The translations under genes were made by a program, and so were the position numbers. A stretch of 64,000 bases of DNA from a virus. The notes under the pieces were generated by a model that was given only the letters and a program-made list of their open reading frames with translations, searched no databases and had not been told where the DNA came from. This document shows, piece by piece, positions 2,260 through 63,955 of this stretch (its first letter is position 1; each line of letters starts with the position of its first letter). The DNA is taken from UHGV virus genome UHGV-0229283. One strand, 5' to 3'.

Positions 2260-3273
2260 ATGGCAGTAGTACGCACTAATGATTTCCAGATCGTTGACCT
2301 AGGCGCAACTCTGGAAATTGTACCTCGTCAGTACCGTATGATCACCAACATGAACCTTTTCGAGGCTTATCACGGTGTCTCTACTATCGCCCAGATCGAG
2401 CGTGTTGACGAAGTTGTAACCGACTTCCCAGCTCGTCGTCGTCAGGGTGAACGTAACTACGTTGGTACTGAAAAGGCCCAACTGAAAAACTTCAACATCC
2501 CGTTCTTCCCGCTGGATCGTCAGATCACTCCGGCAGACGTACAGAACTTCCGTAAATATTTCACTGCGGACGCTCCTAAATCTGTACAGGATGTAGTTGA
2601 ACGCGTTGTTCGTCGTATCCGTATTTCTCATGAACAGCTTAAAGAAAAAGCAATGCTTCAGGCAATCATGGGTAAATCTTGGGCACCGCAGGACCCGACC
2701 GCTCAGTATAACTACTTCACCGAATGGGGTGTTACCCAGGAAGTTGTTAACGTAGATTTCACTGACGTTGCAGTTGACCCGTCTGACCTGCTCGAAAACG
2801 ATGGTCGTGCATTCATCATCGACAACGCGGGTGACAACGGAAACAACTACGACATCGTAGTCCTGGCTTCTCGTAAATGGTTCTCTGCTTTCGTAGGTCA
2901 CCCGCTGATCATGAACGCATACCAATACTACAGTTCCACTCAAGAACCGCTGCGCCGTCGTCTTGGTGACGGACAAGAGAACGCTAACAACCGTTCCTTC
3001 GTTCATAAGAACGTTCTGTACATCGAAGATATCTCCGGCTACATCCCGGACGGTGAAGCTTACATGCTGCCACGCGGTATCGACAACATGTTCCAGATCC
3101 ACTACGCGCCAGCAGACGATGTTCGTGAAGCGAACACTCCGGCACAAGAACTGTACCTGTGGTACAAATCTTCTGCTTACCTGCGTGAAGAGAAGGTTGA
3201 ATCTGAAACCTCCTTCCTGACAGTTAACTGCCGCCCAGAGCTGGTTGTTAAACTGACTGGTACTTTCGCGTAA
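2260..3273 (+). CDS. major capsid protein
   Basis: 337 aa with highly biased, highly expressed-type codon usage and RBS AAGGAGAAAA. Position after the scaffold gene. A strong antisense ORF overlaps it, which is typical of highly expressed capsid genes. Confidence 0.6.
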   Translation: MAVVRTNDFQIVDLGATLEIVPRQYRMITNMNLFEAYHGVSTIAQIERVDEVVTDFPARRRQGERNYVGTEKAQLKNFNIPFFPLDRQITPADVQNFRKYFTADAPKSVQDVVERVVRRIRISHEQLKEKAMLQAIMGKSWAPQDPTAQYNYFTEWGVTQEVVNVDFTDVAVDPSDLLENDGRAFIIDNAGDNGNNYDIVVLASRKWFSAFVGHPLIMNAYQYYSSTQEPLRRRLGDGQENANNRSFVHKNVLYIEDISGYIPDGEAYMLPRGIDNMFQIHYAPADDVREANTPAQELYLWYKSSAYLREEKVESETSFLTVNCRPELVVKLTGTFA

Positions 3274-3391
3274 TATAGCTTAAAGCTACCTCTAAGAGGG
3301 GGAGGTGTTAATCACCTCTCCCTTTTTTCATTTTAAGATTAGCATGGTGATCTTATATGTCAAGAGGTTTATGAGGACCAAAGGAGATTCT

Positions 3392-38695: not shown

Positions 38696-38914
38696 TTAGT
38701 TTTTTAAGATGCCGCGCTCTTCAAGAATCGCGACTAATTGTGCTTCTGTTGCCCGGTAAGTGAAGGAGTGCAACATCTTCTTTGCAGTAATGTATGCACA
38801 CCCGAACTCTTTACACACTCTTTTGTAAGGATTCTCAACCTCTGGGGAAGAGAACCCTTCCAGACATGCAACAAGTCTATCAGTTACCGGGGTTGGTTGC
38901 AACCCCGTTTTCAT
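38696..38914 (-). CDS. hypothetical protein
   Basis: 72 aa ORF. Confidence 0.25.
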   Translation of the reverse strand: MKTGLQPTPVTDRLVACLEGFSSPEVENPYKRVCKEFGCAYITAKKMLHSFTYRATEAQLVAILEERGILKN

Positions 38915-40944
38915 CAGAATTTAATCTTCAGGGTGCGGTTGAAAGAACCAGTAACCTTCACAACCAACTCGTTACGCTGGGTAGACGAGAAGCCCAGGCC
39001 GCTCAGTTGATCAGTGGAGTGTTCAGCTTTGAGCTTGGAACCCAACACTTCGAACACTTTACGATGCTCATGCAGCTCGTCACGCAGATACTCATTATAG
39101 AAGCCACGAGTATCGTCAGGGTTAATGCAACCTTCCAGCATAAAGAAGTAGTGTTTGTTACCTTTGGTCTGACCATCCCAGAAGTTAGGAGAATTCAGCA
39201 CCAGAGAAACTTTCTGGAAGGTCTCGGTAGAGACGCCCCATACTTCTTTCGATTGCTTAGTATGCCCGATGCTGTCTACAATTTCAACACCTTTCGCACG
39301 AGAATACTTAAAGGTTACAACGGTCTGGCTCTTGCTATTACCCAAAGCTTGCGGGTATGCAAAGTTGAACACTTGGCCTTTGTATTCCATCTGTACTTCG
39401 AAGCCAACGCGATCAGTCATGCGCTTATTATAGTTGTTAACAACAACCTTGTAAACACCTTCCGTGATATTACGCTCATTTTCCCACGTAACGTTCTCAA
39501 CCGGATGGTGTGCGTCTGACTTGCCATAGGCATTCATATCCACATCCAGCGTACCCGTTGAGCGACCACGTTTGTTACCGAAGTAAATTTGACCGCCACC
39601 AGGCTCGAATACGTGCAGGTCGAGGTCATCACTGTTGTACCAGGACAACGAAACACGCAGGTCACCAGTCACGCTACCGCCAGCGGCTTTCACACGCTCC
39701 TTGATGGAGTCAGTTACTTCGCCATTATACGACCAGGAGAAGCCGTTATCCCATTTGAACAGGTTAGGAGCACCTGCGTTTGCCGGGGCAACCAGGCTCA
39801 TCAGGTTCGGTGTCAGACGACCTTCAACCAGCGCTTCGATAGTGTCCGCTTTCGGCAGAACGTTATTGATGAAATCCTCAATGCTGATCTCTTCTACTTT
39901 CGACAGTGACTTCGGCGCGTTTTTGGTTGACGCTGCCAGTTGCTCGAATACGTTCATCTGGGCCTTTGCAGAACGGTCAGCAAACAACACGTTGTTGATC
40001 GTCAGGTCAGAGGTCACCGCAAAGCGACGTGCCAGAGATTCAGTCAAGCCGAGGGCTTCAACCTTCTCTTGTGCTGCCTTGATCATGCCCGGAGTTACCA
40101 GAGCTGTAGTACGCTTGTAGTTGGTCCCTGAGACTTTGTCTTCAAAGGACTTCACTGCGGCTTCAAGATCAATACCTTCTGCCAGATCGCTCATCAGTGT
40201 ACCGATGACATCATTACGGAAGCGGCCCAGTTTACCCAGCGTTTCACTTTGTTTCCAGCAGAAGTTCATTCGCTGATCTTCCGGCGTTTTGTCGTATGCA
40301 CGTTTCGCCTTAATAAAGGCAGCAACAATGTGCTTTTTCTCATCACCACGGTACAGAGAGCCTTGGTTGATCAGGTCCATTACCGTTTCGGCAGAGTCCA
40401 TATCGATATCTTTCAGAGAACGTGCCAGCACAGTTGCGTTGTCACGGTACTCACCCAGGGCAGAAGGGATATCTTCACCACGTTTAACCAGTTCGCGAGG
40501 CAGGGCCTGATGGAAGTGGGTCCAGGTTTTGGTTTTCCCATTTTCCAGGAGAACTACGTTGCTCTCAGTACCAACGCGGCCTTCGAAGTGGAAGAAGCGA
40601 TCGCGGATCTCGGCGCTTTCAACACGCGCTTTCATCGCATCGGCAACAACTTGGTAGTAACCACCAACTTTAACGTCCCAAATAGAGACCAGCTTGCCGT
40701 TGTGAATCGCGACTACTCGGCCCAGAGTACGGATGTAGCTCTTGCAGCAGTTACAGTCATATTCACGGCGCTCTTTATACATCAGATTGGTGCCTTCCGG
40801 GAAAGAGTCGAGGTACAGATCGTACAGTTCATCTTTCGGTACATCGACCGTGTAAAGCGCACCCAGCGCTTGCATGACAGCGAACTGAGCTTTCAGAGCT
40901 TTTACGAAGTCAGCGTAAGGTACGGTTTCATATTTTGCGGTCAT
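38914..40944 (-). CDS. large conserved hypothetical protein (676 aa) of the early region
   Basis: Long ORF with a clean RBS. No motif I can confidently place. It is not NAMPT-like because it lacks the GYRG-type signature. Confidence 0.5.
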   Translation of the reverse strand: MTAKYETVPYADFVKALKAQFAVMQALGALYTVDVPKDELYDLYLDSFPEGTNLMYKERREYDCNCCKSYIRTLGRVVAIHNGKLVSIWDVKVGGYYQVVADAMKARVESAEIRDRFFHFEGRVGTESNVVLLENGKTKTWTHFHQALPRELVKRGEDIPSALGEYRDNATVLARSLKDIDMDSAETVMDLINQGSLYRGDEKKHIVAAFIKAKRAYDKTPEDQRMNFCWKQSETLGKLGRFRNDVIGTLMSDLAEGIDLEAAVKSFEDKVSGTNYKRTTALVTPGMIKAAQEKVEALGLTESLARRFAVTSDLTINNVLFADRSAKAQMNVFEQLAASTKNAPKSLSKVEEISIEDFINNVLPKADTIEALVEGRLTPNLMSLVAPANAGAPNLFKWDNGFSWSYNGEVTDSIKERVKAAGGSVTGDLRVSLSWYNSDDLDLHVFEPGGGQIYFGNKRGRSTGTLDVDMNAYGKSDAHHPVENVTWENERNITEGVYKVVVNNYNKRMTDRVGFEVQMEYKGQVFNFAYPQALGNSKSQTVVTFKYSRAKGVEIVDSIGHTKQSKEVWGVSTETFQKVSLVLNSPNFWDGQTKGNKHYFFMLEGCINPDDTRGFYNEYLRDELHEHRKVFEVLGSKLKAEHSTDQLSGLGFSSTQRNELVVKVTGSFNRTLKIKF

Positions 40945-41307: not shown

Positions 41308-41988
41308 TTAATGGCAATCGCTCCAATTACGACCAGTCAGGTATGCCCCTGTGATATGTACAGGACTGCCCATGATACGAGCGGCCTTCTCTACACATCT
41401 TACGACCATTTCACCTACAGGGCAATACTGGATGTGAATTTTACCATCCTCTCCAAAAATACCCTCGTAGACTGTATTGCCTTCCGCATCCTTGACTTTA
41501 TCACCGTTGTCATCTTTGACGGCCTTTCTCCATTCATGTCCGTCAAATACCCGGCCTTTTGCTTCCCATTCTTTAACGAAAGCTGTTGCCTCTTCCAGGG
41601 TGTCAAACTCCCACTTCTTCAAGTATTTCTTAGGAACCTGGAGCTGGTATTCATCATGGTAGTAAATCAGGCGACGAACGTCATCATCATACCAGCCACG
41701 TTTGATTAGTTCCCAATGAAGAAGGATACCCACCAGATCGAATAGAGATGCACCACCGTTTTGCTGGAAAGCATTCAGAAGAGAGTGCTTAGAACGGGTC
41801 CAAATCTTACGACCATCGAGACCAGGGATATAACGTTTACCCGTTGCTTCCCAGAAGTTTTCAAGCCATTCCTTACGACCTTTCAAACCAAAGTTACTAT
41901 CCCAGAAAGCATCGATTACCGCCTGTGCCTTGTCAAGGGAAATGTGAAGCATTGCTGCAATCTTAGCTGCCTGAGCACCATACATGAT
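41308..41988 (-). CDS. DNA polymerase (family A), exon 2 / C-terminal part
   Basis: IMYGAQAAKIAAML aligns with T7 gp5 FLYGAGDEKIGQIV, the end of motif B. YYHDEYQ is motif C (HDE). The listed ORF extends 5 codons further, to 42003, into the putative intron. Confidence 0.6.
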   Translation of the reverse strand: MMYGAQAAKIAAMLHISLDKAQAVIDAFWDSNFGLKGRKEWLENFWEATGKRYIPGLDGRKIWTRSKHSLLNAFQQNGGASLFDLVGILLHWELIKRGWYDDDVRRLIYYHDEYQLQVPKKYLKKWEFDTLEEATAFVKEWEAKGRVFDGHEWRKAVKDDNGDKVKDAEGNTVYEGIFGEDGKIHIQYCPVGEMVVRCVEKAARIMGSPVHITGAYLTGRNWSDCH

Positions 41989-42674
41989 CCTAATGTTCGA
42001 CATGGGACGCTACCACCATGCCCGTTCTCTTATGAACTGCTGCATGTTTCCATGCAGAGCAGACTATATCTTCACCCACACTTGGGGTGTCCACCGCTTC
42101 GGGCCGCTTGGCCCTACTCCGTTACCGGATAGTCGTTGGGATTTTACCTCTTGCCAAATACCACTCTTCACCACTACAGTAAAGATTGTTGCAAACAGCA
42201 TGTTCTACATTAGATGCACGGCATGATAACTCTATATTTTCCCAGCAATTATTCAATGTGTTTGCATCTAGGTGGTTGACCTCTTCCTCTTCAAGAAGGT
42301 CTCTACCGATCTTTGCCGCACAAATCAACCTGTGCAACAAATAGTGTTTGCCATTTTTCAAACAGATACGCTGATAAAATTTCTTTCCCTTACCTTTGTG
42401 TAGATAGGGCTTCAACTTTCTTAGTTTTCCACGATTGCTGGAGTATATATTACCTTCGTGGTCACAAAAGTATCCGTTTGATATTGGTATTTTAGCCAAG
42501 GTACTTATCTGCTGATTGTCCATTTCATCCTCCTAAAAGGAGAAATCATACATAAATTTTTCAAACTGTCAAGCCCATCCTCGCGGATCACTTTGTAGTA
42601 TTTATGTCTTTAGGATTTCCCAGCAATTCAATGGATGCACCTTATAAATTACTTCATAAGGGGGCTATCAATTA
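41989..42674 (-). other. putative group I intron (about 686 nt) interrupting the DNA polymerase gene, carrying an HNH endonuclease ORF
   Basis: Exon 1 ends ...KGVTYG, then TAA. Exon 2 is best joined at IMYG, which reconstitutes KGVTYGIMYGAQAAKI against T7 KTFIYGFLYGAGDEKI. The 5' exon ends in U and the intron ends in G. GC-rich paired segments flank the HNH ORF. Confidence 0.45.
42122..42523 (-). CDS. intron-encoded HNH homing endonuclease
   Basis: 133 aa. The His/Asn-rich core EEEEVNHLDANTLNN fits the HNH motif. It is embedded between the two halves of the polymerase gene. Confidence 0.6.
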   Translation of the reverse strand: MDNQQISTLAKIPISNGYFCDHEGNIYSSNRGKLRKLKPYLHKGKGKKFYQRICLKNGKHYLLHRLICAAKIGRDLLEEEEVNHLDANTLNNCWENIELSCRASNVEHAVCNNLYCSGEEWYLARGKIPTTIR

Positions 42675-44711
42675 ACCGTAGGTTACCCCTTTACCACCGT
42701 TACGCGTTACCAGAGTACCAGAAGCTTTGGTGTATGCCTCGGCGTTTCGTGCGTGGGCATCTCCACTTTCCATGATACGGAGGTATTCACCGCCATCGAA
42801 CTCGTAAGCACCCCAAGCAGCAATCATACCTTCGAGGTTAGAACCATCGATACCGACTTGGTAATATTCATCGGTCACACCCCAGAGACCACGCATCTCT
42901 TTACCCAACAACACCTTAGGATCTGGCTTAGGCATGTTTGCACAAATGGTGTGCTTACAACGCCCGGTGTTAGTGATACCAGAGAAACGAGCTGGAAGTT
43001 TTCCATCAATCGCCAGGCGAGGATGATTCAACAGCCCTGTATCGTTTTTATCCTCGTCAATAGGGTCGAGAACAGAACGACGGTTACGTAATGACAGCCA
43101 CTTAACAATCTGTTTAGCCAAGTGAACATCGATAACTTCAAGGTTAGGACACAGCTTGCCAAAGTTATCCTTCAACTGTGGTGAAGTCGGCAGTTGACGA
43201 GCTTTGCGTCTGAACTTCTTGAAGATCTCCTCGTAAACACGATCAGAACCATGACGATGGTCGAACTTGTTTTCCGAGATATTGAACTTTGCGTCACTAT
43301 TATTTAAGTGCTCAAGAATCAGAGATTTATACTCGGACTCTCCAAGTTCTTCGATGTACTTACGCACCAGACCATCAACCTCCGCATCATCGCGGGTCTT
43401 TTTGAACTGGTCTTTCGTCACATCTTTAACACGCCAGAGCGTTGGTTTCCATCCCGCATCGCGGATCAGGTACTTCTTGATGTCGTCCTGGTTCGAGATC
43501 TTCATCGGAACCATCAGGTCTGGCATCTTTCCAGCACGAAGATCGGCAATTGCCTTTTCCATTAGGTCTGGTGGCAATGGGACAAGGGTATTCTCTTTCT
43601 TTATCTGGCTTCTAATGAAGTCTGGCATCGCTGCCGGGTCTTCAACACCATTCTGGATACAGTATCTTTCCCCTGCTGCACTTACATCACCGTTACCTTT
43701 AAACGCCGTCTTCGGTGGACCTTTGAATTCCAGCGCTTCACGATTAACTGGATATCCCAGCTTGTATTCTAACCAATTCCACCCGTGATGGGAAATTCTT
43801 CCTGCACCATCAAAAGGATTAGCAGGGAATTTTGGCTGTTGAGACTTCGTCATCTCTTTGAGCGGGAGTTGAGGTTCTACTTCTTCCTCAATCTCTTTCA
43901 TCATTACATCAATACGGTCTCTCAGCTTTTCAGCTTCATGCTTATTGAATGGAACACCCTGAATTTCTTGCTCAATCATCAGGTAATCAGTCAACATACG
44001 GCGGCGTAGCGCGTTCTTCCAGTTGATCTGCCGCATCCCTTCCGGCTTATCTTTGTACATGAACTGCTTGTCATCAGGCCAGCGAGCACCTGTAGACTCA
44101 TCGATCAGGGATTGCCATGTCAATTCGTTGATTAAAACGTCTTCCCAGACACGGTTAACGTATTCCCACAATGGTTGGTTACGCCAGTCATCGATCTGAA
44201 CTTTCTTGTTTGCTACGCGGTAGCCCCAGGCCAACAGGCCATGAGGACCTACACGGTCTCGCTTCCCGGTTACCGGGTTAAGAACAGAGTCAGGGCAACC
44301 GTTAGGTAATGGGCGGTCAGGATAAAGCACACGGCTCATAGAGAGGGTGTCGTAGAGATTTACCTGTGTATCCCCAATCGTCCCCATGCACTTCGGGTCT
44401 TTGAACATATCATATTCAATGCCCGATAACTTCTTCCACAGACGCAGGTCATAGCCAAAAAGGTTGTGAATCGCAATGCCGCGAGGCTCCGTTTGCAACC
44501 AAGTGTACAGCTCGTCATAAGAAAGAATCCTAAGGTTAGCCTCTGTCTTGCTACGAGCGTAAGCTACTGCGCTTTCATATTCCGGGTGGTTTGGGTCAAG
44601 GAAGAGGACCCAATTGTTAACACCAAATTCTTTCAGTAGTGTGCAGTGGTACTTTGTAACTTCATCAAGCAGCCCATCTGCTTCATTATCCCCTATAAAA
44701 AGACCTCTCAT
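42675..44711 (-). CDS. DNA polymerase (family A), exon 1 / N-terminal part with 3'-5' exonuclease
   Basis: FIGDNEADGL is a DEDD exo motif. IDGSNLEGMI...GGEYLRIMESGDAHARNAE aligns with T7 gp5 motif A and downstream, ADASGLELR...NGEYAHEILNGDIHTKNQ. The ORF ends RNGGKGVTYG, then stop, inside motif B. Confidence 0.7.
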
Positions 44712-45217
44712 TCATCCCTCGCAAAAGTGTTATGGTACTTGGCTCTTTCTCTTTTAGCTACATCTGCCGCTTCTTCAAGACTGTCAAAATATCCGCAGTG
44801 GATTTGTTTTCTGTTAACACAGATCTGCACCTGCCATTTACCAGCATGTTCTTTCCAGTAGACACACTTATGGCCGGAGGTGTTAGTGACCCTTTTCCTA
44901 CTATTATGCATGTTTTGGTTTGTTGTTGCGGGTCTCAGGTTTTCTACGTGGTTATTTTGAGGATTGCAGTCTTCGTGATCCACAACATCAGGAAGCCATC
45001 CATGATGGTACAAGAAAATCACCCTGTGAGCGAGAAATCTTCCTAACGGGGTGCTTATCTCAATGTACCCTGTGTTCATCACGCTTCCAGCTTCCTTACC
45101 GCCATACTTGGTATTGAAGGTTTTGTTGAACCTGTTTGTTGCGGGCCTTAATCTGTGGTAAAGTTTACCATCTCTGTATTCAAACAACTTCCTAACGTAC
45201 TCTTGCGAGAGTGTCAT
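44708..45217 (-). CDS. free-standing HNH-AP2 homing endonuclease
   Basis: VVDHEDCNPQNNHVENLR is the HNH core. The AP2-like C-terminus is GHKCVYWKEHAGKWQVQI...GYFDSLEEAA. ATGA overlap with the polymerase gene. Confidence 0.6.
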   Translation of the reverse strand: MTLSQEYVRKLFEYRDGKLYHRLRPATNRFNKTFNTKYGGKEAGSVMNTGYIEISTPLGRFLAHRVIFLYHHGWLPDVVDHEDCNPQNNHVENLRPATTNQNMHNSRKRVTNTSGHKCVYWKEHAGKWQVQICVNRKQIHCGYFDSLEEAADVAKRERAKYHNTFARDE

Positions 45218-45273: not shown

Positions 45274-47337
45274 TTAAATTACATAAATTGCATGTTTTGC
45301 GTATTGCAATCCTATCGGGGCGAAAGGCGTATCATCGTCAGGACCAAGAGTAGGGACTGGTGTCCTATCAAGATCGATGGTTGGCTTATACTCAGGTGCC
45401 GGAACATTTACCTTTCCAACCGGAGTTTCCAGAGAGAGTTGATGGATCAGACTCTGAGGACGAAGCATAACTTCACCATTAAGCTTGAACATCCCATCTT
45501 CCCATTCCCAGCCGGAAGCATCGGAGAACTGCCCGTTGTCATCCATAACCATTGTATCAGCGATACCCAGTTTTTTGTGTGGGCGGTTCTTCAGCACCAC
45601 GATACGTACACGCCCACGGGAGCGGTCAGGAAGCTCTTCTGGTTCAACACCCAGAACCACCCATGAGAGTTGTTCAAGGGCCGCAGAACCGCGCAGGTCT
45701 TCTTTACGGACCGGATACCAGAACGGCAATAGATTCCCATCTTTATCTTTCGGAAGCTGAAGTTCTTTACGCTTCATGTGGCTGATTGATAAGATGAAAA
45801 CATCGTACTTCTTACAGAAAGCTGCCAGCTCGGTCATGATGTTATCAAGGTCTCGACGTTCGTTGTCGGACTTAAGACCAGAGATTACCATTGACAGGTG
45901 ATCGAGGATGATCCATTTACAACCATCAAGGAACACCATCTGCTTAAGTTTCTGAATAAGCTGGTCTGTCGGGATAGAACCGAAGTGATCAAAGATCTTA
46001 ATCTTATCTTCCCGAATCCAGCGTTGGTGAATCTCAAGGTGTTGCTCTTCGGTTAAGAACTGCTCCGGGTCAGCAACAAATGCCTTAGGGTCCACCTTCA
46101 GCTCTTCAGCATACAAGCTGTTTACAGACTCTTCTTCATCCTCTTCCAGACGGATGATGGCTACTTTCTCACTCTCGGTCCAGCCATCTAGGCGGGGAAT
46201 TGACATATCACGAAGATAATCAATGATCGCGTATTCAATCTTACGAGAGATTGTAGACTTACCACCACCAGACGGGCCTGTCAATGTCCAAAGCTCACCA
46301 GTACGGGGGCCACGGGTCAGGTTATATAGGCCGGGTAGCCCTGGTAATGGAACACCATCTTTTTTCTTCTTGCGAAGATTCTCAATGGTAATATCCTTAA
46401 GACCGATAAGCTTATCAGGAACATAGCGATCGTCTGCTTTGGTAAACATTGCATAAAGCTCGCGTACCTTACCTGCATCATACATGTCACGAATGTCTTT
46501 AAAGCCATCCGGGTCATTACGCTCGTTAGGATATCGCACAACGTAAATATTTTCTGACAGCAGGAAGCTAGCGACATCGTCGGTTGCTTCTTTACCTTTC
46601 TTTATTTTCTTTTCTTTTTCTAATGCTGTGGCTTCGTCGTTATCAAAGCCCAAGACTACCTTCTCATAACTGCGAATGAACTTCTCGTTGTTTGCGAAAG
46701 TATCAACAGCGTTTGCAGTACCACAGTTTAATCCAACATAGGGTAGTGTCGGAAGACCTCCAATGTCCTCGTCGTTCTGAATATGACGGATACCTTTTAA
46801 GATGCTATCCGCCCAGTCTTTAACGCCTTTACTGGCCTTTGGACTGGTGGACATAGCCTTAACCATCTCATACGCTGCCTGCCATGCGGCGCATACGTCA
46901 CCTTCACCTTCCACGATATTGATCTGCTTACGACCAACACCCATAGAGGCTTCATGCTGCCCGAAGAACTGAGATGATGCCTTCACAGCACCAACAGTTG
47001 AAAAGTGTCCTGTCTTTTCCTTCTGTAACGTCCAGTCACGTTTCTTGAATCCCGTCAGTTTCCCATACTTATCATAATAAGGCAAGTATGTTGCTACCGG
47101 GGTGATACCATCCGCCGGGGATACCGCAGAACGGATCTTAAAATACTGTGCTGCTTCAAGAGAGAGACTCATTTCGGGAACAGCCATGATGCGGGTGCCA
47201 GACAGCACTGATTCCAGGGTCTCTTCTACTCGATTGTTACTATAACTCAACTTGCCTCCGCGATTACTTCCAAAACCTGCTCTTGGGTTTTCATTGCCAC
47301 CTTTCCTATAGGCCGCCCAATCTGGTCCATTACCCAT
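45274..47337 (-). CDS. bifunctional primase-helicase (T7 gp4-like: TOPRIM primase plus DnaB-family helicase)
   Basis: Walker A TLTGPSGGGKSTISRK and Walker B IILDHL in the C-terminal half. The N-terminal half is primase-like. The C-terminal tail is DDDTPFAPIGLQYAKHAIYVI. Confidence 0.65.
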   Translation of the reverse strand: MGNGPDWAAYRKGGNENPRAGFGSNRGGKLSYSNNRVEETLESVLSGTRIMAVPEMSLSLEAAQYFKIRSAVSPADGITPVATYLPYYDKYGKLTGFKKRDWTLQKEKTGHFSTVGAVKASSQFFGQHEASMGVGRKQINIVEGEGDVCAAWQAAYEMVKAMSTSPKASKGVKDWADSILKGIRHIQNDEDIGGLPTLPYVGLNCGTANAVDTFANNEKFIRSYEKVVLGFDNDEATALEKEKKIKKGKEATDDVASFLLSENIYVVRYPNERNDPDGFKDIRDMYDAGKVRELYAMFTKADDRYVPDKLIGLKDITIENLRKKKKDGVPLPGLPGLYNLTRGPRTGELWTLTGPSGGGKSTISRKIEYAIIDYLRDMSIPRLDGWTESEKVAIIRLEEDEEESVNSLYAEELKVDPKAFVADPEQFLTEEQHLEIHQRWIREDKIKIFDHFGSIPTDQLIQKLKQMVFLDGCKWIILDHLSMVISGLKSDNERRDLDNIMTELAAFCKKYDVFILSISHMKRKELQLPKDKDGNLLPFWYPVRKEDLRGSAALEQLSWVVLGVEPEELPDRSRGRVRIVVLKNRPHKKLGIADTMVMDDNGQFSDASGWEWEDGMFKLNGEVMLRPQSLIHQLSLETPVGKVNVPAPEYKPTIDLDRTPVPTLGPDDDTPFAPIGLQYAKHAIYVI

Positions 47338-55427: not shown

Positions 55428-55985
55428 TCATGCCCCCTGAGAATCTTCTTTCTCTTTATAATATATATGGTTATCGATCCTGACTGTGCGTAGCATGGCC
55501 TTTGTCCAGTAGGGTTTTACTTTTCGTGAATGGTAGTGGGTTGCTCCATGTGTTATGTCCAGAGCATCGTAGACGATCCTGTTTTGTTTATGAATCTTGA
55601 TCAGAACTTTTGCAAACTCTTGTGCCTTCTCCCAGCGATCCTTTTCATAGACTTTAAACGTTGTTCCTGAAGATGTCCAGGAGAATTGTCCGGGCTGGTA
55701 GACGATCTTTTTTACTGTTCCAGGGTACTTATCGTTATCCTTACGATTCAAAGTTACGAATGCGATCGACATTAACCCGGAATCACTCTCTCCACGAGCT
55801 TCTTTGTACATGTTGCAGGCTAAAATGTTTACCACTGTATCATCTTTTTTGCACAGATGAATTACCTTGGGCTTCTTTGCGTTGTCTTTAGCCAGTACAG
55901 GTGTGGTGGCTAGAGAAAACACACAGGCGGTTGCCAGAATCAGATTTTTCAATTTCAAATTTACACTCCAAATTAAAAGCCCCAT
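55428..55985 (-). CDS. secreted cell-wall hydrolase, SleB / Hydrolase_2 family (candidate endolysin)
   Basis: Signal peptide KLKNLILATACVFSLATTPVLA. LACNMYKEARGES...AFVTLNR...YQPGQFSW matches the SleB-type hydrolase domain. The true start is possibly the TTG at KLKNL, after GGAG. Confidence 0.55.
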   Translation of the reverse strand: MGLLIWSVNLKLKNLILATACVFSLATTPVLAKDNAKKPKVIHLCKKDDTVVNILACNMYKEARGESDSGLMSIAFVTLNRKDNDKYPGTVKKIVYQPGQFSWTSSGTTFKVYEKDRWEKAQEFAKVLIKIHKQNRIVYDALDITHGATHYHSRKVKPYWTKAMLRTVRIDNHIYYKEKEDSQGA

Positions 55986-59238: not shown

Positions 59239-59554
59239 CAGGACCCTCCAGCTTCCAGCCACGACTATTCAGCCATTCGTCAATCTGAATACCCGTGCCG
59301 TCACCACTTGGTTTCTCTACCCCAAGTAGTAGTATGGCAAAGCTCTGACCACGAGGGGCGTTATAGGTTAACACCGTATTACCCACATAAAGGTCGATCT
59401 TTTTGGTATGTGCTACCATACCGTCTCTCAATTTAACCACGATAATCCAGTCCCCCCTGTGGATAATCCACATTTTGTCATTTCCCGAATGGCAGCGATC
59501 TGTTCTGATGTCAGAGGGCCGTCGTCTGGAGGGTAGTAACCAGGGATTTCCCAT
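59231..59554 (-). CDS. hypothetical protein
   Basis: 107 aa. The N-terminal part overlaps the macro gene, so the true start may be the internal Met at 59473 or 59419. Confidence 0.25.
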   Translation of the reverse strand: MGNPWLLPSRRRPSDIRTDRCHSGNDKMWIIHRGDWIIVVKLRDGMVAHTKKIDLYVGNTVLTYNAPRGQSFAILLLGVEKPSGDGTGIQIDEWLNSRGWKLEGPDE

Positions 59555-60039
59555 TCTTTCAAGACATAAACTGTCACATCACAATCAAAGAAGATTGATT
59601 TGATCATTGCCTCGATGACGTTCCAGTCACCGCCTGCAAGGCCCGCACCAATTTTAGGGAAGCCAATTTTGTAGTCAGCCATAGAACCGTCTGTAAAGCT
59701 CTGTAAGAGCTTTTTCATTTCAACCATCGAATCATACAAGGCATTGTAGTCGAGGTCCCTGAGGCCCTGTTTACGGAGAGTATAGCCATATTGTGAGTAC
59801 AGATTAAACCCTGCGACTGTACCGTCCTTCAGGAAGGCCATTGTATAGGTTCCAAGTTTGGCTTTATCACCCTTCTCGGTCTTGAGATCCGCAGCGTACA
59901 TTTTGGGGAACGCTTCTTTGACCAACGGGGCGATACCCCTGCCCATAGCGCAATGGCAATTACAACCGTGAGCGAACACGTTAACTTCACCGTTCTTAAC
60001 GGCCTCGATCAGGTCTCCAACTTTATATTTCAAGCTCAT
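59428..60039 (-). CDS. macro-domain protein (ADP-ribose binding/processing)
   Basis: VNVFAHGCNCHCAMGRGIAPLV matches the macro-domain N-terminal signature. GFPKIGAGLAGGDWNVIEAMI matches the phosphate-binding loop region. 203 aa. Confidence 0.55.
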   Translation of the reverse strand: MSLKYKVGDLIEAVKNGEVNVFAHGCNCHCAMGRGIAPLVKEAFPKMYAADLKTEKGDKAKLGTYTMAFLKDGTVAGFNLYSQYGYTLRKQGLRDLDYNALYDSMVEMKKLLQSFTDGSMADYKIGFPKIGAGLAGGDWNVIEAMIKSIFFDCDVTVYVLKEWEIPGYYPPDDGPLTSEQIAAIREMTKCGLSTGGTGLSWLN

Positions 60040-63263: not shown

Positions 63264-63449
63264 TCATGACAAATACCATTTAAAACCACAGTTCGGGCAA
63301 CAAGGTTCCTTAATCCGAAGCTGATCGGGGGCCTTTACAGGAGCATCTTTCAGGTTATAAGTCGAAAAACATCTCGCACATACTACAACCTTGTCAGGAA
63401 TTTCCATTTCGAACCAAGGAAGGCCATTTAATTTTTTCGTAATGATCAT
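63264..63449 (-). CDS. small zinc-ribbon protein
   Basis: 61 aa, CARC...CCPNC. Confidence 0.3.
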   Translation of the reverse strand: MIITKKLNGLPWFEMEIPDKVVVCARCFSTYNLKDAPVKAPDQLRIKEPCCPNCGFKWYLS

Positions 63450-63955
63450 AATGTAGCCAACATGTTGATCGCTTCGTGGTGTTCTTTCATCTTTGTCAGA
63501 CGAAGATACATGTCATGATACTTACGGACACGTAACAAATCCTTATCTGTCAGGCCTTTCAGGCGACGAACATCAGAGTTATGGCGCAGGTCTGCAAGCT
63601 TCACACGTACCGCATCATAGTTTTGGGCCAGGCGGTTAAAATACTCTTCCGGTGTCTGATTAGGGGTTTTCGTCAGAAGAACCACAGCATCCTTCACACG
63701 GTTCGAGAAGCCTAGCAGAACCAGATCCGCAGCGGTAACATCGGTGTCTTCAACCACATCATGAAGCGCGGCGATAGCCATAAGCTGAAAATCATCGGTC
63801 TTCAGGTAGTGCATTACCTTCAGCGGATGAAGGATGTACGGGTTACCACCCTTATCTTTCTGATTCAGGTGGCCTTCTGCTGCAATTTTAATTGCTAAAG
63901 CAAGTTCTTGGGCCGGACTTAAAGCTTGAATACAACTCTTGTCTGTTGATACCAT
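63446..63955 (-). CDS. HD-domain small alarmone hydrolase-like protein (SpoT/Rel/Mesh1-type (p)ppGpp hydrolase domain)
   Basis: GNPYILHPLKVMHYL...AIAALHDVVEDT matches the Rel/SpoT HD hydrolase signature (H...HD...D). 169 aa, stand-alone. Confidence 0.55.
   Translation of the reverse strand: MVSTDKSCIQALSPAQELALAIKIAAEGHLNQKDKGGNPYILHPLKVMHYLKTDDFQLMAIAALHDVVEDTDVTAADLVLLGFSNRVKDAVVLLTKTPNQTPEEYFNRLAQNYDAVRVKLADLRHNSDVRRLKGLTDKDLLRVRKYHDMYLRLTKMKEHHEAINMLATL

Follow-up and report, generated by a model that had tools for sequence, protein, structure and literature searches.

A putative mobile self-splicing group I intron with a recombinant endonuclease cassette in motif B of a phage family-A DNA polymerase gene

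The virus genome UHGV-0229283 was analysed here over a stretch of 64,000 nucleotides (nt), called the window below. In this window a gene for a family-A DNA polymerase is broken within motif B by 686 nt that contain an open reading frame (ORF) for an HNH endonuclease. The locus raises the question of whether the insertion is removed from the RNA, the polymerase is made in two pieces, or the gene has been inactivated. A previous reading of the nucleotide sequence (the original prediction) proposed a group I intron that splices itself and named a polymerase of two polypeptides as the alternative. Our analysis indicates that the insertion is very probably a mobile self-splicing group I intron of IA2 type, located in motif B at TYG|IMYG. 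Six lines of evidence speak for the group I reading: a match to Rfam family RF00028, the exactness of the insertion, the U/G rule for splice sites, covariation, a 3' core similar to those of T4 introns and of the intron of phage Berlin, and the splicing of a homologous intron in phage CB7. The polymerase exons, the intron and the HNH ORF are all on the minus strand:

Positions 42675..44711, minus strand: exon 1 of the family-A DNA polymerase gene, 679 codons, 3' end ...GTA ACC TAC GGT, final base U in the RNA.
Positions 41989..42674, minus strand: intron, 686 nt, IA2-like, recognised by the RF00028 match, the exact insertion relative to Proteus phage Mydo and covariation.
Positions 41308..41988, minus strand: exon 2, first codons ATC ATG TAT GGT (IMYG), stop codon at 41308-41310 included.

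Without splicing, the ORF of exon 1 (42672..44711, minus strand; 679 amino acids, aa) has the C-terminus ...RNGGKGVTYG and then stops at UAA, the first bases of the intron. The intron terminates with ...CAUUAGG, its omega-G being 41989, and the downstream ORF (41308..42003, minus strand) has the N-terminus MSNIRIMYGAQAAKI. The polymerase gene of Proteus phage Mydo has no intron; it is 2718 nt long, 98.3% identical, and runs uninterrupted through the junction as ...ACC TAC GGC ATC ATG TAT GGT..., i.e., VTYG IMYG. Base-by-base comparison with Mydo gives exactly 686 extra nt between GGT and ATC in the window (3404 - 2718 = 686), and relative to many intron-less alleles the insertion is in phase 0. 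The intron-less target of the Mydo type reads ...ACCTACGGCATCATGTATGG... (also given as ...GTAACCTACGGCATCATGTATGGTGC...), and the predicted spliced junction of exon 1 and exon 2 is ...ACCUACGGU|AUCAUGUAUGG... Other than the insertion, the sole difference at the junction is GGC in Mydo versus GGT in the window. Position -1 is C in intron-less alleles and U (42675) in the window, a change that supplies the U required for the U.G pair of P1.

Removal of the 686 nt in silico gives a continuous polymerase of 905 aa. Its alignment with T7 gp5 is ungapped across motif B (LVTRNGGKGVTYGIMYGAQAAKI against LPTRDNAKTFIYGFLYGAGDEKI; E = 4e-17), and the motifs RxxxKxxxYGxxYG and YHDE line up; the break therefore falls between G527 and F528 of T7 gp5, in motif B. 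In the numbering of E. coli Pol I, mapped from T7, we take this to be G763|L764. The match of the polymerase to Pfam DNA_pol_A is borderline (34.7 bits, cut-off 34.3). The comparison with intron-less homologues had been suggested together with the original prediction, and it bears out the predicted coordinates, junction and length; together with the T7 gp5 alignment, it also confirms that a family-A polymerase is broken within motif B and that joining at TYG|IMYG restores this motif. The polymerase region is 98% identical to those of Klebsiella phages K18PH07C1 and K54_rec and of Proteus phage Mydo, and exon 1 shares 98.5% identity with its counterpart in Klebsiella phage K54_rec2. The window phage is a Mydovirus-like member of the Vequintavirinae.

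The exact borders of the insertion also bear on the idea of a protein-level element such as an intein. Related phages do have inteins in genes other than this one; several are present in Pectobacterium phage vB_PatM_CB7 (CB7; PMC7344957). The insertion in the window, however, opens with an in-frame stop codon (UAA), its HNH ORF has a start codon and a ribosome-binding site of its own, and its RNA fits a ribozyme model. The stop codon and the RNA evidence refute the intein reading, the probability of which is negligible.

A search with Rfam covariance models, which had also been suggested earlier, found RF00028 (Group I intron) at 42040..42683 on the minus strand with 66 bits against a gathering score of 50 (E = 1.2e-15). 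The match spans the full model, positions 1-253, and the score above the gathering threshold excludes a chance match. No other Rfam family reaches its threshold anywhere in the 64-kb window, and no tRNA genes were found in it. The splice sites follow the group I rule as predicted: the 5' exon ends in U (42675), the intron ends in G (41989), and U 42675 stands opposite the G at intron position 10 in P1.

We built the intron's secondary structure (P1 to P10) by hand, comparing related introns. Several of its helices also appear in the minimum free energy (MFE) fold. The elements of the model are:

Positions 42663..42670, minus strand: internal guide sequence UGAUAGCC, read from the sequence.
P1, predicted pairing: exon GGU and intron UA with guide UAGCC, U.G at the splice site.
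P10, predicted pairing: guide UGAU with AUCA of exon 2.
Positions 42640..42661, minus strand: P2, CCUUAUGAA-GUAA-UUUAUAAGG, 9 base pairs (bp) with a GNRA loop, in the MFE fold.
Positions 42629-42635 and 42620-42625, minus strand: 5' strand of P3 (UCCAUUG) and 5' strand of P4 (UGCUGG), with J3/4 (AAU) between them.
Positions 42550..42607, minus strand: P5 extension, consisting of P5a (ACAUAAAU/AUUUAUGU, 8 bp) and P5b (AUCC-GCGA-GGAU, GNRA loop), in the MFE fold.
Positions 42510..42521, minus strand: 3' strand of P5 (GGA) and 3' strand of P4 (UCAGCA), both within the HNH ORF.
Positions 42486..42503, minus strand: 5' strands of P6 and P6a, UACCUU ... GCUAAAAUACC.
Positions 42145..42162, minus strand: 3' strands of P6a and P6, GGUAUUUGGC ... 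GAGGUA, closing the loop with most of the HNH ORF.
Positions 42090..42138, minus strand: J6/7 and 5' strand of P7 (CAACGACUA), P7.1, GUA, P7.2 and 3' strand of P3 (CGGUGGA).
Positions 42101-42129, minus strand, within the preceding segment: P7.1 (UCCG-GUAA-CGGA), linker GUA and P7.2 (GGGCC-AAGC-GGCCC).
Positions 42040..42089, minus strand: P8 (CACCC...GGGUG), J8/7 (AAGAUA), 3' strand of P7 (UAGUC) and P9 (CUGCAUG-GAAA-CAUGCAG).
Positions 41999..42022, minus strand: P9.1, GGCAUGG...CCAUGUC, including the AUG (42001-42003) of the downstream ORF, which starts MSNIR.

Covariation was assessed on the ORF-less cores of seven introns, namely the intron of the window, intron 1 of Salmonella phage SSE121, introns 1 and 2 of K54_rec2, introns 1 and 2 of CB7, and the intron of Yersinia phage Berlin. 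With the hand model 94.9% of the cells are paired and 23 of the 55 pairs show compensatory changes; none of 500 shuffles was as good, and slid controls reached 32-49%. Covariation backs P2 (compensatory changes in six of nine pairs), P3, P4, P7, P7.1, P7.2, P8, P9 and P9.1. P4 is paired in 100% of cases, and four of its six pairs are compensatory in Berlin. MAFFT places P7.1, P7.2 and P9 of both motif-C introns one or two columns off, so the counts for these three helices are underestimates. Beyond this set, P6 covaries with the intron of Pseudomonas phage SPA01 (UACCCU/AGGGUA), and the P5 extension shows compensatory changes in CB7 intron 2 (ACACAAAU/AUUUGUGU) and in SPA01 (ACACAAGA/UCUUGUGU; GCCG-GUAA-CGGC). 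When the 686 nt are folded alone and without constraints, the MFE structure contains P2, P5a, P5b, P6/P6a, P7.1, P7.2, P8, P9 and P9.1, including the long-range pairing of 42486..42503 with 42145..42162, whose strands are about 330 nt apart.

For the 5' strand of P7, the Rfam alignment gives GUGACCA (intron nt about 208-214, early in the ORF), which would place the ORF between P7 and the 3' strand of P3. This placement was rejected. The introns of K54, CB7, Berlin and SPA01 have CAACGACUA or CAGAGACUA directly before P7.1; these shared bases and the covariation of GACUA with UAGUC led us to set the 5' strand of P7 at GACUA, 42130-42134.

P7.1 and P7.2 joined by GUA are a hallmark of subgroup IA2 (PMC3428280), and this arrangement is present in the window. 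The 3' core (intron nt 529-686) is 70-80% identical to the introns of T4 nrdD, td and nrdB and to the polymerase intron of Berlin. We call the intron IA2-like on the basis of the hallmark and of its kinship with accepted IA2 phage introns.

Does such an RNA splice, or are two polypeptides made? The two HNH-containing introns of the CB7 DNA polymerase gene are both spliced, according to RT-PCR and Sanger sequencing of the cDNA (Buttimer et al. 2020, PMC7344957), and CB7 intron 1 (HNH gene CB7_52) occupies the identical site, GVTYG|IMYG, with the same guide sequence. It shares the IA2 architecture and is 84-89% identical to the window intron in the core segments (nt 1-61 and 537-686), whereas the middle parts (P5, P6 and ORF) are unrelated, that of the window carrying a 133-aa HNH_3 protein after a long P5 extension. 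Production of the polymerase from two ORFs would require a 679-aa N-terminal part and a C-terminal part started at the AUG at 42003 or at the Met of IMYG, which would assemble post-translationally as in the mobE-split NrdA of Aeromonas phage Aeh1. Exon 1 indeed reads straight into the UAA stop, exon 2 is preceded, 15 nt upstream, by an in-frame AUG, GenBank lists the pieces in relatives as separate coding sequences, and one HNH insertion in another CB7 gene did not splice (PMC7344957). However, that AUG lies inside P9.1, is not preceded by a good Shine-Dalgarno sequence, and reads CUG in SSE121, CB7 and Berlin. Two polypeptides would also leave a complete and strongly covarying group I core without a role, would ignore the splicing of the homologous CB7 intron at the exact site (PMC7344957), and would put the break inside motif B. 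The motif B stretch forms a single helix, the O-helix, which touches the incoming nucleotide, so a cut there is unlikely to be tolerated. The alternative named in the original prediction is thus disfavoured, and we regard it as very unlikely.

The same data bear on the third answer, a decayed splicing-defective intron or a free-standing HNH insertion in a polymerase pseudogene, perhaps of a defective or misassembled genome. Homing-endonuclease insertions can inactivate genes in general; nothing specific points to inactivation here. Decay is hard to reconcile with core helices each of which is intact and canonical, with a middle part that differs from SSE121 in 1 nt out of 475 and encodes the same HNH protein (100% identity), or with exons that are both open and about 98% identical to those of functional relatives; besides, the polymerase is presumably essential for the phage. 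We consider this explanation extremely unlikely.

We turn to the endonuclease gene of the proposed intron and its candidate expression signals:

Positions 42122..42523, minus strand: HNH endonuclease ORF, 133 aa, most of it in the P6 loop.
Positions 42545..42572, minus strand: candidate sigma-70-like promoter, TTGACA-16 nt-TATGAT, in the P5 extension, 11 of 12 consensus positions.
Positions 42530..42542, minus strand: predicted hairpin CUCCU-UUU-AGGAG covering the Shine-Dalgarno sequence AGGAGG (42529-42534), read from the sequence.

The ORF at 42122-42523 had been called HNH earlier, which agrees with its matches to Pfam HNH_3 (34.6 bits, cut-off 24.8; residues 61-105) and phrog_959 (E = 1.8e-27). 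A comparison of the protein with PDB sequences, I-HmuI included, gave no match at E up to 1. The ORF probably encodes a homing endonuclease, whose activity and target are predicted from these similarities and from its position. At both of its ends it extends into the ribozyme core. Codons 1-5, AUGGACAAUCAGCAG (AUG GAC AAU CAG CAG; MDNQQ), provide the 3' strands of P5 and P4; the 3' end of the ORF contributes the 3' strand of P6 and, with the last codons, ...ACG ACU AUC CGG UAA, also J6/7, the 5' strand of P7 and half of P7.1, the UAA stop being in the tetraloop of P7.1. The unrelated HNH proteins of the K54 and CB7 introns also end in TTIR, because both kinds of ORF read the same core bases. 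Such "core creep" of an ORF into the ribozyme has been described for I-TevI and others (PMC3073962).

The candidate promoter lies 15 nt upstream of the HNH Shine-Dalgarno sequence. Its hexamers are identical in CB7 intron 2, and SPA01 has TTGACA-16-TATAAT. The stem of the hairpin is also kept (CUCCU/GGGAG in CB7 intron 2, CUCCU/AGGAG in SPA01); as it is not part of the MFE fold, we treat the hairpin as putative. The whole leader of the HNH block is 92% identical in CB7 polymerase intron 2 and 77% identical in the SPA01 intron, which lies in an unrelated gene of Pseudomonas Pakpunaviruses. Across the window, CB7 intron 2 and SPA01, the helices P5a, P5b and P6 vary compensatorily; the promoter hexamers and the hairpin stem are fixed. 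An RNA started about 7 nt past the -10 element would be without the 5' arm of the hairpin. This suggests a logic like that of T4 I-TevI, in which translation would be blocked on the pre-mRNA and allowed on the intron-internal transcript.

In SPA01 itself (L006, about 2478-3350), an IA2-type intron interrupts a Pakpunavirus gene that is annotated as two hypothetical proteins, with ...MMGKGQIMS as the end of the first part and the start of the second located within ...EELKGQLAERF. The P5 leader of this intron, with promoter, Shine-Dalgarno hairpin and MDNQQ start, is homologous to that of the window.

Several points weigh against a self-splicing intron in the window. We infer splicing in this particular phage from the evidence above. 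Only three exon bases are paired in P1, and P5 proper has only 3 bp. Rfam at the gathering threshold missed the relatives with long ORF inserts: in L002, L003, L005 and L006 it found the SSE121 copy alone, and the K54-type, Berlin and SPA01 introns were recognised through homology and hand alignment. In the window, the automatic Rfam alignment is locally wrong at the 5' strand of P7. Ribosomes on the HNH ORF would cross the 3' strand of P4, P6 and P7 and could disturb folding. Finally, the functions proposed for the promoter and the hairpin are predictions drawn from a consensus match and from conservation.

Among phages the intron is found in a patchy pattern, which is what a mobile intron should show. 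When the spliced junction was used as a 120-nt probe, 94 phage records matched, of which 46 are contiguous, i.e., intron-less, and about 16 are split. The intron of Salmonella phage SSE121 (Seunavirus) is at the same site and is 97.5% identical over 686 nt, whereas the exons are only 79-87% identical. The HNH protein has 100% aa identity to that of the SSE121 intron and 55% to CB7_50. The same polymerase intron 1 is present in Salmonella phage GEC_vB_MG (Seunavirus); in GenBank, it is annotated in both Salmonella phages only as separate coding sequences, and a literature search for SSE121 together with an intron found nothing.

At this site, the K54-type intron of Klebsiella phages has only nt 1-61 and 537-686 in common with the window; in the middle, it and CB7 intron 1 have an unrelated 149-aa Cys-rich HNH gene downstream of a compact P4-P6. 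The ends of the window intron match K54 at 100% and 98.7% and differ from SSE121 at 16 positions (two in nt 1-61, 14 in nt 537-686); the 475 nt in between (nt 62-536) differ from SSE121 at one position (99.8% identity). The window intron is therefore a recombinant with ends of the Mydovirus type and a cassette of the SSE121 type, which runs from P5 to P6 and includes the endonuclease gene. No co-conversion tract, i.e., SSE121-like exon sequence beside the intron, was found, the exons being Mydovirus-like up to the junction. This favours recombination within the intron, in an allele in which an intron was already present, over fresh homing from SSE121.

After SSE121, the nearest relative of the cassette is polymerase intron 2 of CB7. 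It is inserted at a second site of the same gene, which is vacant in the window:

Positions 41655..41656, minus strand: empty second intron site YYH|DEY in motif C, occupied by an HNH intron in K54_rec2, SSE121 and CB7.

The ends of the window intron (P1 to the 5' strand of P4, and from J6/7 to the 3' terminus) fall into the lineage formed by the motif-B introns of Klebsiella Mydoviruses. We lean slightly towards an origin of the intron by cassette exchange between two group I introns at two sites of the same polymerase gene.

The second site reads ...TATTACCATGATGAATACCAG..., and in the window its His codon, CAT, already ends in U. The introns found there are 687-771 nt long (4585-5355 in L002, from K54_rec2; 4530-5300 in L003; intron 2 in L004, from CB7). 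The introns of the T7-like phages phiI and W31, at Pol I position 881 in motif C (PMC3428280), correspond to this second site of the window's relatives.

Free-standing endonuclease genes are found around the polymerase gene as well. Directly upstream, and not part of the intron, there is an HNH-AP2 endonuclease gene (44708..45217, minus strand; 169 aa; Pfam HNH_3 and AP2; phrog_99), which lies between a primase/helicase gene (45274-47337) and the polymerase gene and overlaps the start codon of the latter by 4 nt (ATGA). The gene is shared with Mydo and K54 (100% identity in K54_rec2) and is missing in SSE121, a distribution that marks it as a second, independent mobile endonuclease at the locus. 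K54_rec2 has an additional free-standing HNH gene of 220 aa directly downstream of the polymerase (L002, 5694-6356), which the window and Mydo do not have. In these phages the polymerase locus is a hotspot at which endonucleases are gained and lost.

In the window, the gene directly downstream of the polymerase is a 676-aa ORF (38914-40944, minus strand) for which Pfam gives nothing at E up to 0.001; its conserved counterparts in Mydo and K54 are labelled "hypothetical protein". Among the replication-side genes, all on the minus strand, there are sub-threshold matches to Macro (59428-60039; 20.9 bits, cut-off 22) and HD_4 (63446-63955; 21.4 bits, cut-off 27.2), and a clear match to Hydrolase_2, a cell-wall hydrolase (55428-55985).

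How does the proposed intron compare with known systems? It differs from the intron of SSE121 in the host gene (79-87% identical), in its K54-type ends, and in the absence of the second, motif-C intron that SSE121 has. With the polymerase introns of the T7-like phages Berlin, phiI and W31 it shares the IA2 type, a His-Me/HNH ORF in P6a and a family-A polymerase as the host gene. The introns of phiI and W31 are at Pol I 881 in motif C (PMC3428280) and not at the site of the window. Yersinia phage Berlin, a T7-like phage, has a 680-nt group I intron (L005, 1965-2644) at KTF|IYG, which is also within motif B, and its 3' core is 80% identical to nt 538-684 of the window intron. By our own mapping, the Berlin intron is three codons upstream; it has no P2 and contains an unrelated endonuclease VII-like ORF. 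These are related ribozymes at neighbouring but non-identical sites of motif B.

The phages SPO1, SP82, Bastille and Pf-WMP3 (I-HmuI, I-HmuII, I-BasI and I-PfoP3I, nicking HNH enzymes) also have an HNH-bearing group I intron in a phage family-A polymerase gene, within a conserved segment of the finger domain, and the Pf-WMP3 intron starts with UAA as well. Their site is Pol I 674, versus about 763 here, and the ORF of SPO1 is in P8 (PMC3073962). The T4 td intron with I-TevI resembles that of the window in its IA2 type, the ORF in the P6 loop, the overlap of the 3' end of the ORF with P6a and P7, and the 3' core sequence, and the arrangement for regulation appears to be alike. I-TevI, unlike the HNH protein of the window, belongs to the GIY-YIG enzymes, and the td intron sits in the gene for thymidylate synthase. 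In contrast to that of td, the ORF of the window reaches into the core with its 5' end as well (3' strands of P5 and P4, 5' strand of P6). The internal promoter of the window resembles a host sigma-70 promoter, whereas T4 uses middle and late promoters.

The likely course of events is as follows. The transcribed RNA would fold into the group I core (P1, the P3/P7 pseudoknot, P4-P6 and P8-P9.1) and excise itself by two guanosine-initiated transesterifications. P10 (AUCA/UGAU) would guide ligation of the exons, giving an mRNA for the continuous 905-aa polymerase. The HNH gene of the P6 loop appears to have crept into the ribozyme core from both ends. In the full-length pre-mRNA the hairpin may hide the ribosome-binding site of the HNH gene, from which transcripts of the internal promoter would escape. 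In co-infection, polymerase alleles that lack the intron presumably become the target of the endonuclease, which would nick or cut them, and repair would then copy the intron in (homing).

For annotation, this means that two polymerase ORFs become one 905-aa product and that the intron and the endonuclease are labelled accordingly; in GenBank, relatives such as SSE121, the K54 recombinants and KpS11 have the pieces as separate genes or hypothetical proteins. Part of the picture was already known: SSE121 and GEC_vB_MG contain the same intron without annotation, and its CB7 homologue has been validated experimentally. The new details are the motif-B insertion site, the mosaic of cassettes and the conserved internal promoter. 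The intron sites listed for phage family-A polymerases are Pol I 674, 676 and 881 (PMC3428280), and the motif-B site adds to this list. Current understanding is not overturned, as phage polymerase genes have been known, since the case of SPO1, to contain HNH group I introns. The intron-internal promoter is conserved across phages of Klebsiella and Salmonella, Pectobacterium, and Pseudomonas. The locus is a clean natural example of the replacement of an endonuclease cassette within an intron, with an ORF that overlaps the core at both ends. If the cassette was indeed exchanged between the two intron sites, endonuclease genes would travel between introns as self-contained units that bring part of the ribozyme, the half with the P4-P6 domain, along, and such units could displace the resident endonuclease gene in an allele that already has an intron.

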